Origin: Escherichia coli
GTDB taxonomy: Bacteria; Pseudomonadota; Gammaproteobacteria; Enterobacterales; Enterobacteriaceae
Assembly (NCBI RefSeq): GCF_003334785.1
Contig: NZ_QOWV01000014.1
Reading direction: 5' to 3' (one strand)
Length of the DNA stretch: 64,000 nt
Notes under the pieces: model-generated
What the model was told of the DNA's origin: nothing
The model's database searches: none
What the model saw: the letters and a program-made list of their open reading frames with translations, nothing else
Program-made: the position numbers and the translations under genes
Shown: positions 58,775 through 61,646 of the stretch, in pieces
How the letters are laid out: each line of letters begins with the position of its first letter
How positions within the stretch are numbered: position 1 is the first letter of the stretch

Positions 58775-59677
58775 ATGGCCAATCTCTACGACTTGAAAAA
58801 GTTCGACTTAAATCTTCTTGTCATATTTGAGTGTATTTACCAGCATTTAAGCATTAGCAAAGCTGCTGAATCACTATATATCACCCCATCAGCCGTGAGC
58901 CAGTCGTTACAACGCTTACGTGCGCAATTTAATGACCCTTTATTCATTCGCTCAGGAAAAGGTATCGCGCCGACGACAACAGGGTTAAATCTGCATCACC
59001 ATCTTGAGAAAAATCTCAGAGGCCTTGAACAAACAATTAATATAGTCAATAAGTCCGAACTAAAGAAAAACTTTATTATCTACGGCCCTCAGCTCATTTC
59101 TTGCTCTAATAATAGTATGCTGATCCGCTGCCTACGGCAAGATTCCTCTGTCGAGATTGAGTGCCATGATATCCTCATGTCAGCAGAGAATGCTGAAGAA
59201 CTGTTGGTTCACCGCAAAGCCGATCTGGTGATCACCCAAATGCCAGTGATCAGCCGTTCCGTCATTTGCATGCCATTGCATACGATTCGCAATACTCTAA
59301 TTTGTAGTAATAGGCATCCACGAATTACTGACAATAGCACTTATGAACAAATTATGGCAGAAGAGTTCACCCAATTAATATCTAAATCAGCAGGGGTTGA
59401 TGATATTCAAATGGAAATAGACGAGAGATTTATGAATCGCAAAATCTCATTTCGTGGTTCCTCTTTGCTGACAATCATTAATAGCATTGCAGTTACAGAT
59501 TTACTGGGAATAGTCCCCTATGAACTTTATAATTTCTACCGTGACTTTCTTAACTTAAAAGAGATAAAACTAGAACATCCGTTACCTTCAATAAAGCTTT
59601 ACATTTCCTATAATAAATCTTCTTTAAATAATTTGGTGTTCTCCCGATTTATTGACCGTCTAAATGAGAGTTTTTGA
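58775..59677 (+). CDS. ybdO: LysR-family transcriptional regulator
   Basis: 300-aa ORF in a visibly AT-rich region with an N-terminal wHTH (ISKAAESLYITPSAVSQSLQRLR). Confidence 0.8.
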   Translation: MANLYDLKKFDLNLLVIFECIYQHLSISKAAESLYITPSAVSQSLQRLRAQFNDPLFIRSGKGIAPTTTGLNLHHHLEKNLRGLEQTINIVNKSELKKNFIIYGPQLISCSNNSMLIRCLRQDSSVEIECHDILMSAENAEELLVHRKADLVITQMPVISRSVICMPLHTIRNTLICSNRHPRITDNSTYEQIMAEEFTQLISKSAGVDDIQMEIDERFMNRKISFRGSSLLTIINSIAVTDLLGIVPYELYNFYRDFLNLKEIKLEHPLPSIKLYISYNKSSLNNLVFSRFIDRLNESF

Positions 59678-59823
59678 TATATAACTACAGACAGCTACTA
59701 TAACTTTCATCTATTTATTCACAGCGCGAATGAAAAATAAAACACTCTGCTTTACAGTGTTTACTTTATAATTAACAGACTTATCTCACTGATCACCCTG
59801 TAACGTTCAGAGAGCGTCTTCAG

Positions 59824-61044
59824 ATGTCTATTTATAAAATTCCTCTTCCGCTCAATATTCTGGAAGCTGCACGAGAGCGTATTACCTGGACACTCAACAC
59901 CCTACCCCGCGTTTGTGTCTCATTTTCTGGCGGCAAAGACTCTGGTTTAATGCTGCATCTGACAGCCGAACTTGCCCGACAAATGGGCAAAAAAATCTGC
60001 GTTTTGTTTATCGACTGGGAGGCGCAATTCTCTTGCACCATTAACTATGTTCAGTCCCTGCGCGAGTTGTACACCGATGTCATCGAAGAGTTTTACTGGG
60101 TTGCGCTCCCGCTTACGACGCAAAATTCCCTTTCACAATACCAACCCGAATGGCAGTGCTGGGAACCTGATGTCGAATGGGTACGTCAACCTCCCCAAGA
60201 TGCGATAACCGACCCTGACTTTTTCTCCTTTTACCAGCCAGGCATGACCTTCGAACAATTTGTACGTGAGTTTGCCGAATGGTTTTCACAAAAACGTCCG
60301 GCGGCGATGATGATCGGCATCCGTGCGGATGAGTCCTACAACCGTTTTGTCGCCATCGCCAGTTTAAATAAACAACGTTTTGCCGACGATAAACCCTGGA
60401 CTACGGCCGCACCAGGCGGTCATAGCTGGTACATTTACCCCATTTACGACTGGAAAGTGGCTGATATCTGGACCTGGTATGCAAATCATCAAAGTCTCTG
60501 CAACCCACTGTATAACCTAATGTATCAGGCAGGCGTTCCTCTGCGTCATATGCGAATTTGCGAACCTTTTGGCCCGGAGCAACGACAAGGATTATGGCTC
60601 TATCACGTTATCGAACCGGATCGCTGGGCTGCTATGTGCGCACGAGTCAGCGGGGTAAAAAGTGGCGGCATTTACGCCGGACATGACAATCATTTCTATG
60701 GGCATCGGAAAATCCTCAAGCCAGAACATTTAGACTGGCAAGAATATGCATTATTGCTGCTCAATAGCATGCCGGAAAAAACAGCTGAGCATTACCGCAA
60801 TAAAATCGCCATTTATTTGCACTGGTATCAGAAAAAAGGCATCGAGGTTCCACAAACCCAGCAAGGGGACATTGGCGCGAAAGATATCCCCTCCTGGCGG
60901 CGGATATGCAAAGTTTTACTCAATAACGATTACTGGTGTCGGGCATTATCATTTAGCCCCACAAAATCGAAGAACTATCAGCGTTATAACGAACGGATAA
61001 AAGGAAAACGTCAGGAATGGGGGATACTATGCAACAACGATTAA
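59824..61044 (+). CDS. ybdN: PAPS-reductase-like PP-loop ATP pyrophosphatase family protein
   Basis: 406-aa ORF with the PP-loop motif SFSGGKDSG near the N-terminus. Confidence 0.8.
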   Translation: MSIYKIPLPLNILEAARERITWTLNTLPRVCVSFSGGKDSGLMLHLTAELARQMGKKICVLFIDWEAQFSCTINYVQSLRELYTDVIEEFYWVALPLTTQNSLSQYQPEWQCWEPDVEWVRQPPQDAITDPDFFSFYQPGMTFEQFVREFAEWFSQKRPAAMMIGIRADESYNRFVAIASLNKQRFADDKPWTTAAPGGHSWYIYPIYDWKVADIWTWYANHQSLCNPLYNLMYQAGVPLRHMRICEPFGPEQRQGLWLYHVIEPDRWAAMCARVSGVKSGGIYAGHDNHFYGHRKILKPEHLDWQEYALLLLNSMPEKTAEHYRNKIAIYLHWYQKKGIEVPQTQQGDIGAKDIPSWRRICKVLLNNDYWCRALSFSPTKSKNYQRYNERIKGKRQEWGILCNND

Positions 61045-61646
61045 CGCAGGATTTAACGCAATTTCTCGCCAGCTTGCCGGAAGATGATCGCATCAAAGCG
61101 ATTAATGAAATCCGCATGGCGATCCATCAGGTTAGCCCCTTTCGTGAAGAGCCAGTGGATTGCGTTCTGTGGGTTAAAAACAGCCAACTTATGCCTAATG
61201 ATTACAACCCAAACAACGTGGCACCACCCGAAAAAAAACTGCTGCAAAAATCCATTGAAATAGATGGTTTTACCCAACCCATTGTGGTCACACATACGGA
61301 TAAAAATGCCATGGAAATCGTGGATGGTTTTCACCGCCATGAAATTGGTAAAGGCTCATCATCATTAAAATTACGCTTAAAAGGTTATTTGCCGGTGACC
61401 TGTCTGGAAGGTACGCGTAATCAACGCATCGCCGCGACTATTCGTCATAATCGCGCTCGTGGACGCCATCAAATCACCGCCATGTCGGAAATCGTCCGTG
61501 AACTTAGCCAGTTGGGATGGGACGATAATAAAATTGGCAAAGAGCTGGGAATGGACAGCGACGAAGTGCTGCGCCTGAAGCAAATTAACGGCCTGCAAGA
61601 GTTGTTTGCCGACCGTCAATATTCCCGCGCCTGGACGGTTAAATAG
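61017..61646 (+). CDS. ybdM: ParB/sulfiredoxin-like nuclease-domain protein
   Basis: 209-aa ORF with a DGxHR-type motif (VDGFHRH); overlaps the ybdN 3' end by 28 nt. Confidence 0.8.
   Translation: MGDTMQQRLTQDLTQFLASLPEDDRIKAINEIRMAIHQVSPFREEPVDCVLWVKNSQLMPNDYNPNNVAPPEKKLLQKSIEIDGFTQPIVVTHTDKNAMEIVDGFHRHEIGKGSSSLKLRLKGYLPVTCLEGTRNQRIAATIRHNRARGRHQITAMSEIVRELSQLGWDDNKIGKELGMDSDEVLRLKQINGLQELFADRQYSRAWTVK

Follow-up and report, generated by a model that had tools for sequence, protein, structure and literature searches.

The ybdN-ybdM gene pair of Escherichia coli is a CitR-repressed chromosomal homologue of the IbrA/IbrB family

Introduction

IbrA and IbrB are immunoglobulin-binding regulators; in 2002, Sandt, Hopper and Hill reportedly described how the overlapping ibrA and ibrB genes of Escherichia coli ECOR-9 jointly raise prophage eib expression. 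We analyzed a 64,000-nucleotide (nt) stretch of E. coli DNA (NCBI RefSeq assembly GCF_003334785.1, contig NZ_QOWV01000014.1; hereafter the window), in which citR (ybdO), ybdN and ybdM form a cassette at positions 58775 to 61646. An original prediction, made from the sequence alone, had noted a LysR regulator upstream of a PP-loop enzyme and a ParB-like protein, and had likened the latter two to DndB/DndC-type nucleic-acid modification or defense modules. It had missed that the pair is the named IbrA/IbrB family and that YbdO had already been published as CitR (PMC9068703). In our analysis, ybdNM is a chromosomal homologue of this already known family and not a new system.

The original prediction was aware of no biochemical function for the pair, and none is assigned in the searchable literature; ybdN and ybdM are E. 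coli K-12 genes still without one. No mechanistic study of ybdN/ybdM, IbrA/IbrB, the domain DUF3440 or a phosphoadenosine phosphosulfate (PAPS) reductase with ParB was found in that literature.

Characterized members of the structural clade of YbdN make or break anhydrides between adenosine monophosphate (AMP) and an oxyanion: AMP-sulfate in CysD and the adenosine phosphosulfate (APS) and PAPS reductases, AMP-flavin mononucleotide (FMN) in flavin adenine dinucleotide (FAD) synthase and, as has been proposed, AMP-DNA phosphate in DndC. The ParB/sulfiredoxin (Srx) domains, to which YbdM belongs, bind nucleoside triphosphates (NTPs) and, depending on the branch, clamp DNA, hydrolyze NTPs or transfer phosphate. 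VirB and KorB work by CTP-switch mechanisms.

Results and Discussion

Family Membership and Layout of the Locus

YbdN has the domain content of IbrA, with both a PAPS_reduct and a DUF3440 domain (Pfam PF01507, E 1e-13, and PF11922, E 5e-23). YbdM has that of IbrB, a ParB fold joined to a helix-turn-helix (HTH) in a protein of about 200 amino acids (aa), and 75 partners of IbrA-type genes are 43-62% identical to it. The gene arrangement is also that of ibrA and ibrB: adjacent, co-oriented and overlapping. Database names point the same way, YbdM being an "IbrB-like domain-containing protein" in RefSeq and one YbdN orthologue having been named "IbrA family prophage gene co-activator" by NCBI. A transcriptomics paper on Shiga toxin-producing E. 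coli (STEC) cites IbrB-dependent activation of Eib (PMC7649339).

All three open reading frames of the cassette are on the + strand, and they, the two motifs SFSGGKDSG and VDGFHRH and the 28-nt overlap of ybdN and ybdM lie exactly where the original prediction had put them. The features of the locus are:

58775..59677, + strand: citR (ybdO), 300 aa, LysR-type repressor of the ybdNM operon
59678..59823, + strand: citR-ybdN spacer, presumed ybdNM promoter/operator region, GC content about 0.34-0.37
59824..61044, + strand: ybdN, 406 aa, IbrA-type PP-loop enzyme
59920..59946, + strand: PP-loop SFSGGKDSG, YbdN residues 33-41
60532..61041, + strand: DUF3440, the helical C-terminal half of YbdN, residues 237-406
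61017..61044, + strand: overlap of ybdN and ybdM, 28 nt if ybdM begins at its annotated start and 16 nt if it begins at 61029
61017..61646, + strand: ybdM, 209 aa, IbrB-type ParB/sulfiredoxin-fold protein with a C-terminal HTH
61320..61340, + strand: VDGFHRH, YbdM residues 102-108, aligning with ParB box II (GERR)
61437..61469, + strand: TIRHNRARGRH, YbdM residues 141-151
61473..61610, + strand: C-terminal HTH of YbdM, residues about 153-198

The start of ybdM is ambiguous. The annotated ATG at 61017 is preceded by AGGA without spacing, and a second ATG at 61029 has a Shine-Dalgarno-like run, GGGGGA, 4 nt upstream and fits the start used in Klebsiella (MQQQLTQ...). Starting at 61029 would shorten the overlap to 16 nt, as in Klebsiella and in the mobile paralogue at locus L004. 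Overlapping or abutting junctions recur among viral loci in which the YbdN-type gene (N) precedes the YbdM-type gene (M).

The cassette is flanked by ahpF, ahpC and dsbG on one side and by ybdL on the other. The low GC content that had been remarked on holds for part of it: values of 0.34-0.42 were found over ybdO, its lowest-GC part, and the ybdO-ybdN spacer, whereas ybdN and ybdM reach 0.45-0.49 and the flanks 0.50-0.57. When 57.4-62.9 kb was scanned with Rfam, the one match was the small RNA STnc70 in the ahpC-dsbG intergenic region (57593-57686, - strand; 42.7 bits, gathering score 40), with no tRNA or other RNA genes at the cassette locus.

Linkage of YbdN and YbdM Homologues in Phages

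Linkage of the two genes was judged from two viral scans, one with YbdN and one with YbdM as query. A tblastn search with YbdN matched 224 phage genomes, among them those of phages that infect Flavobacterium, Mycobacterium, Streptococcus, Arthrobacter, Bacillus and Lactobacillus. A YbdM homologue was present on the same strand in 82 of the 83 viral loci found via YbdN, and a YbdN homologue in 77 of 78 further loci found via YbdM. In the one locus missing a YbdM homologue the contig ends 39 nt past the match, and in the one missing a YbdN homologue the contig holds just 27 nt of upstream sequence. The linkage looks essentially obligate, and the pairing first noticed in E. coli is that of a conserved module well beyond this species. 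Both gene orders occur (37 N-then-M and 40 M-then-N in the set found via YbdM), and the IbrB-like and PP-loop genes directly adjoin each other in annotated phage examples. No other neighbor was universally conserved in the 83 viral loci.

The family is large, with at least 500 clusters of YbdM relatives at 50% identity (E <= 1e-30), and is carried by phages of Proteobacteria, Firmicutes, Actinobacteria and Bacteroidetes, in strictly lytic lineages as well as in prophages. The placement of the module varies. Some phages have it directly before the terminase genes; those of Streptococcus and Lactobacillus have it right after the lysin gene. It is also found within a lambdoid region that includes genes for a RusA-like resolvase and a DNA methyltransferase, beside methyltransferase and terminase genes in actinophages and, in one phage setting, beside a gene that we interpret from its open reading frame as integrase-like.

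Several further proteins recur next to the pair. In 47 of the 83 loci, a domain of about 120 aa, here called domain X (motifs YHPYWxWEE and EWxYSCEHNLTN..AWIGQAAC), lies immediately upstream of the gene for the YbdN homologue; in 19 loci the YbdM homologue carries it as a C-terminal fusion. It matches no Pfam, NCBIfam or PHROG family, bears only "hypothetical protein" names and does not occur in the E. coli window. A SNF2-like helicase (phrog_62, with weak DrmD/ZorD-like matches) stands directly before the pair in about 15 loci, and a protein of about 135 aa (phrog_26647) takes that place in 15 others; L071 and L081 encode a second small PP-loop protein. Examples are:

L047:3848-4990, L043:4628-5002 and 45 other viral loci: domain X
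L001:4824-6002, L072:3599-5014, L074-L078 and others: SNF2-like helicase or another of these additional proteins

Conserved Residues of YbdN and YbdM

YbdN consists of a PP-loop domain of the PAPS-reductase clade followed by the helical DUF3440 half, for which no relative was found among solved structures. The best structural matches to residues 10-235, approximately, were FMN adenylyltransferase (the PAPS domain of eukaryotic FAD synthase), CysD and APS/PAPS reductases, with which YbdN shares the PP-loop and R-x-x-E-S-type motifs at 14-21% identity. The tRNA-acting enzymes TilS, TtuA, NcsA and ThiI were also among its structural neighbors but were not the closest, and a sequence search of solved structures with YbdN returned spurious matches only. 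No RNA-binding domain of the THUMP or PUA type was detected in the domain search.

An alignment of 76 YbdN homologues (24-82% identity) showed the PP-loop residues S35, G37, K38, D39 and S40 to be invariant in all 76. Also invariant were R19, D64, E66, R167, E170, S171, R174, P206, D209 and D214 and, further along, Y230, G237, R244, P248 and Y284. None of the cysteines is invariant: C112 is kept in 54 of the 76 homologues, C246 in 68, C362 in 60 and C372 in 67, with losses scattered piecemeal across lineages.

YbdM combines a ParB/sulfiredoxin fold, resembling KorB, PadC, Spo0J and the VirB core, with an HTH of the sigma-region-4/LuxR-like type. A sequence search of solved structures with YbdM found only Noc (E 1.6e-3). 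In 76 diverse homologues D103, G104, H106 and R107 are invariant, with F105 kept in at least 90%, and the invariant set includes N61, N64, P65, N66, E72, G84, P88, G178, E183 and Q189. The family profile places this DGfhR motif of YbdM onto the GERR of Helicobacter pylori ParB and of Noc. Within TIRHNRARGRH, residues T141, N145, A147, G149 and H151 are invariant and I142, R143, H144, R146 and R148 are found in at least 90% of the homologues. Judging from its position some 40 residues past box II, this motif may be the equivalent of ParB box III. The recognition helix of the HTH (GMDxDEVLRLKQ) is rather acidic and near-invariant from Firmicutes phages to E. coli.

The motif conservation of YbdN and YbdM is far above chance, and the motifs that had drawn attention to the two genes are not degenerate on alignment, since the catalytic-type residues are invariant in all 76 members of each family, spanning phage copies from Proteobacteria, Firmicutes and Actinobacteria. 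This invariance argues that catalysis or nucleotide binding is required of both proteins, which are thus not mere scaffolds. By comparison with curated models, the DndC, CysH, CysD, TilS and Noc profiles gave local matches far below their cut-offs.

A number of IbrB-like variants were encountered. In P0255 and P0256 an apparent intein, judged by eye, lies exactly between DG(F/Y) and TQPIV, and P0316, P0361, P0369, P0370 and P0329 have a long insert with cysteines (CPxC) at that same site. Other variants have tandem IbrB domains, a LAGLIDADG-like N-terminal fusion or a GNAT-like N-terminal fusion. YbdM itself was found by proteomics to be 29-fold up in cells bearing a CTX-M-15 plasmid and was termed "completely uncharacterized" there (PMC8764527).

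A Core Cassette With Mobile Paralogues

Of 5426 complete E. coli genomes, 5423 have the K-12 cassette, 5319 of them at a coverage of at least 80%; it is core rather than a variable island. The order ahpF-ahpC-dsbG-lysR-ybdN-ybdM-ybdL is identical in Klebsiella, and orthologues at 70-85% identity occur across the Enterobacteriaceae. The original prediction had taken the locus for acquired, silenced DNA. The silencing and a mobile-element ancestry stand, yet the cassette is old and vertically inherited and keeps the same synteny in Klebsiella.

Two deep haplotypes were observed in E. coli, differing mainly in citR (79.7% nt and 88.3% aa identity) and in the citR-ybdN spacer (about 68% identity), as seen when window positions 58575-59975 are compared with L091:4001-5250, where the flanks are 96-100% identical. 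Approximately 1765 E. coli genomes fall within the 80-90% identity band. Between the haplotypes YbdN retains 98.5% and YbdM 99.0% aa identity (5.6% and 2.2% nt differences, respectively); divergence affects the regulator and the promoter, and the enzymes stay conserved. This retention of protein identity indicates that YbdN and YbdM are under purifying selection and not decaying.

Besides the core copy, a mobile paralogue pair (58% aa identity to YbdN and 56% to YbdM) was found in 2094 of the 5426 E. coli genomes (about 39%), at up to 4 copies per genome, and relatives of YbdM were found on 781 plasmids. On Klebsiella hypervirulence plasmids (L084, pTHC11-1) the pair lies between fecIRA and the salmochelin genes iroBCDN; an IncF conjugative plasmid of E. 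coli carries it too; and E. coli islands have it beside a PerC-family regulator and iucA, or a TonB-dependent receptor (L089, a STEC chromosome, and L090, ATCC 25922). The Shigella virulence plasmid (L085) retains the M gene alone intact, with insertion sequence (IS) elements immediately upstream. Repeatedly, the mobile paralogues were observed near iron-uptake loci and a PerC-family regulator; this placement could be coincidental island cargo or a hint at regulatory targets. A ParB + DUF3440 pair in Listeria monocytogenes, lmo1309/lmo1310, was listed as a putative toxin-antitoxin system by guilt-by-association (PMC7020466) and is probably another chromosomal copy of IbrAB type.

CitR Repression of ybdNM

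The upstream LysR regulator that had been noted is CitR: YbdO matches the NCBIfam equivalog NF047710, "DNA-binding transcriptional repressor CitR," at 467 bits against a cut-off of 400. Published work on CitR reported a peak upstream of citR-ybdNM in exonuclease-treated chromatin immunoprecipitation (ChIP-exo), a strong derepression of ybdN and ybdM in RNA-seq upon citR deletion, regulation of citR by H-NS and conservation of the cluster in Enterobacteriaceae (PMC9068703, 2022). In the same study the citR mutant showed altered expression of 86 genes, flagellar, cys and citCDEF genes among them, with the flagellar regulon, cysDNC, cysH, cysJI, cysAUW and citF going up alongside ybdN and ybdM (PMC9068703). 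The CitR ChIP-exo peaks beyond citR-ybdNM coincide with no differentially expressed genes (PMC9068703), and this mismatch suggests that the wider changes in the citR mutant may run through derepressed YbdNM.

A sigma-70-like hexamer pair is found at 59674-59701, in or near the citR-ybdN spacer; in the promoter and terminator scans, sites were no commoner than in shuffled sequence. An imperfect inverted repeat at 59729-59773 in the spacer was considered as the CitR operator and rejected, as it is conserved neither in the second E. coli haplotype nor in Klebsiella, which makes it a weak operator candidate at most.

In the K-12-like sequence NZ_OY754443.1 (3266453-3270230), IS1A is annotated between two LysR-family gene fragments. 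The element probably interrupts citR there, in which case derepression of ybdNM would be expected.

Proposed Function and Alternative Explanations

Tentatively, we favor a reading whose likelihood falls somewhat short of even, namely that YbdN and YbdM form an ATP-driven two-subunit complex that acts on nucleic acid and alters the expression of silent genes. On this proposal ybdN-ybdM, a chromosomal copy of the IbrA-IbrB module passed on by vertical descent, encodes two subunits that are inherited together and probably also translated together. YbdM may be the targeting subunit, in which the HTH comes after a nucleotide pocket of ParB/sulfiredoxin type (DGFHR, HNRARGxH). YbdN would be the catalytic subunit, a putative PP-loop ATP pyrophosphatase of the PAPS-reductase/FMN-adenylyltransferase/CysD clade with DUF3440 added. 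Assembled on nucleic acid, probably DNA, the complex would spend ATP through YbdN to adenylylate, and so activate, a phosphate-type oxyanion. The presumed outcome is a changed expression of otherwise silent genes, as reported from genetics for IbrAB and the prophage eib genes, and in E. coli K-12 the operon is held off by CitR and H-NS.

The folds, the invariant motifs, the linkage, the lack of any other universal neighbor in the viral loci and the purifying selection all argue for this proposal. A nucleic-acid target is suggested by the DNA-facing associations of the module: the SNF2-like helicase, the placement before terminase genes and the intein in the DG(Y/F)TQPIV motif. A role in gene expression is suggested by the Eib activation through IbrB that the STEC paper cites (PMC7649339) and by the name "co-activator." Several points weigh against it. 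The citR-mutant transcriptome is tied to YbdNM by correlation. The near-invariance of the HTH recognition helix points to a universal ligand instead of host-specific operators, and the HTH of YbdM may target DNA, RNA or a protein partner. No N-M fusion protein was present among the 150 best representatives of the YbdM family, and the searchable literature holds no biochemical or structural data on any family member.

A bolder form of the proposal is possible and, on balance, rather doubtful. It sees in the module an enzyme-driven switch of a new kind: a PP-loop adenylyltransferase, jointly with a targeting subunit of ParB/Srx fold, would set a covalent mark not yet described, such as adenylylation, on DNA, RNA or protein. 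Mobile elements of all major bacterial phyla might use such a switch to wake silent genes or evade host defenses; the enterobacterial copy would have been domesticated under CitR and H-NS, and domain X would be a third part in many phages. If the pair is indeed a nucleotide-driven activator or a nucleic-acid-modifying enzyme, this would explain how many mobile elements wake silent genes, virulence loci among them, and would correct the routine annotation of these phage genes as "sulfur metabolism." The invariant residues and the natural three-component variants supply handles on the system.

The alternative we find least unlikely, while still expecting it to be wrong, is a self-contained DNA modification that marks or protects the DNA of mobile elements from restriction, comparable to DndB/DndC or DpdB/DpdA. 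YbdM would load on DNA, YbdN would adenylylate the backbone or a base for substitution, and effects on expression would be a by-product. DndC is itself a member of the PAPS-reductase clade, YbdN has weak local matches to DndC and BrxP, and the modification enzymes of the Dnd and Dpd systems have ParB-like partners (PMC10853773, PMC12839542). The occasional SNF2 helicase, the methyltransferase and terminase neighbors in actinophages, the post-lysin location in Streptococcus and Lactobacillus phages and the presence in strictly lytic phage lineages besides prophages would also fit. However, the conserved neighborhood has no gene for a sulfur or other group donor and no restriction partner, the YbdN family has no invariant cysteine, no modified base or backbone is reported in the searchable literature for hosts or phages with the pair, and a core, repressed copy in Enterobacteriaceae is unlike a self-marking system. 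More improbable is a nucleotide-switch clamp of the VirB/KorB kind, in which YbdM or IbrB alone would be an NTP-gated anti-silencer displacing H-NS, and YbdN would do no more than control it, for instance by providing or withdrawing the nucleotide, or through a modification of YbdM. The resemblance of YbdM to KorB, PadC, Spo0J and the VirB core and the alignment of its box I/II equivalents with ParB and Noc are consistent with a clamp, as are the mobile paralogues in H-NS-type territory (beside PerC-family regulators, on virulence plasmids and islands) and the lone intact M gene of the Shigella virulence plasmid. Yet box II reads DGFHR, of sulfiredoxin/SbnI/DndB flavor and not GERR, box I is missing the conserved arginine, and no parS-like conserved repeat was found near the K-12 genes. 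Moreover, every locus that could be checked has a YbdN partner, with an invariant PP-loop, and this speaks against N as a dispensable accessory.

An RNA-directed pair, for instance with tRNA, rRNA or the 5' end of an mRNA as its target, that would reprogram translation or RNA stability during mobile-element development seems quite improbable. Many PP-loop enzymes act on tRNA, TilS, TtuA, NcsA and ThiI are structural neighbors of YbdN, and an HTH helix near-invariant across phyla suggests a universally conserved ligand; but the closest structural neighbors are those of the PAPS-reductase clade, which acts on small molecules or DNA, and there is neither a detected THUMP or PUA domain nor an RNA gene in the locus. 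Anti-phage defense, which the original prediction had also entertained, and a toxin-antitoxin-like pair are very unlikely. The module has two genes and travels on mobile elements, the Listeria pair was flagged as a toxin-antitoxin (PMC7020466), and over-expression of YbdM lowers the growth rate by about 10% (PMC8764527). Against this, the only matches in PADLOC-DB v2 were at noise level (16-22 bits; to DndC, BrxP and a methyltransferase), the locus belongs to the E. coli core, keeps its synteny in Klebsiella and is neither variable nor part of a defense island, the module is abundant in lytic phages, and its two partners are both enzyme-like instead of a toxin with a small antidote. Finally, we give almost no credence to the idea that YbdN is a true PAPS/APS reductase of sulfur assimilation, encoded by an auxiliary metabolic gene, although RefSeq and PHROG label YbdN "phosphoadenosine phosphosulfate reductase" and the cys regulon goes up in the citR mutant (PMC9068703). 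CysH models score 25-35 bits on YbdN against cut-offs of 154-254 (TIGR02057, 34.8 against 254.2; NF002537, 34 against 154). The invariant tail cysteine of CysH is missing, the sole candidate, C246, being replaced in 8 of 76 homologues, and neither an obligate ParB-like partner nor the DUF3440 half has a role in sulfate reduction.

Comparison With Known Systems

YbdNM resembles DndB/DndC in pairing a ParB-superfamily protein of DGxHR type with a PP-loop enzyme of the PAPS-reductase clade, and this likeness had led the original prediction toward Dnd. Membership in that system is not borne out. The DndC equivalog TIGR03183 gave 22.2 bits against a cut-off of 290.4, and the PADLOC DndC model 21.8 bits over a local stretch; no DndB model of NCBIfam or PADLOC matched YbdM at E <= 0.01. 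DndA, DndD and DndE (or DndFGH) are neither at the locus, where the neighbors are dsbG and ybdL, nor conserved in the 83 viral loci. The conserved cysteines of DndC ([4Fe-4S] cluster, sulfur relay) have no invariant counterpart in the YbdN family, and the absence of an invariant cysteine and of Dnd partners argues against a Dnd assignment. DUF3440, in turn, is specific to the IbrA family. The FMN adenylyltransferases, CysD and the APS/PAPS reductases likewise have neither DUF3440 nor a ParB-like partner.

The ParB-type nucleotide switches, KorB of RK2 and VirB of Shigella, and PadC and Noc share with YbdM alignable box I/II equivalents. In contrast to them, YbdM has DGFHR in place of GERR, an obligate PP-loop partner, no ParA partner and no recognizable parS; the family model TIGR04285 scored 20.8 on YbdM against a cut-off of 315, and no ParA gene is found at the locus. 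From the sulfiredoxin/SbnI/free serine kinase branch YbdM differs in its additional HTH and in F105, which takes the position of the catalytic cysteine of sulfiredoxin (GGCHR). A sulfiredoxin for AhpC, an idea that came from the neighboring ahpCF-dsbG genes, was ruled out on this residue and on the mobility of the module, which shows no linkage to peroxiredoxins.

IbrA/IbrB themselves differ from ybdNM in setting and in the kind of evidence at hand. IbrAB copies reside in prophages, islands and plasmids without an adjacent LysR gene, whereas ybdNM is a fixed core chromosomal copy with the LysR repressor CitR and is silent in K-12; and the activation of eib is genetic evidence for IbrAB, whereas that for ybdNM is just the indirect citR-mutant transcriptome. 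In their construction the two are alike, with the same two-protein architecture encoded by the same overlapping genes.

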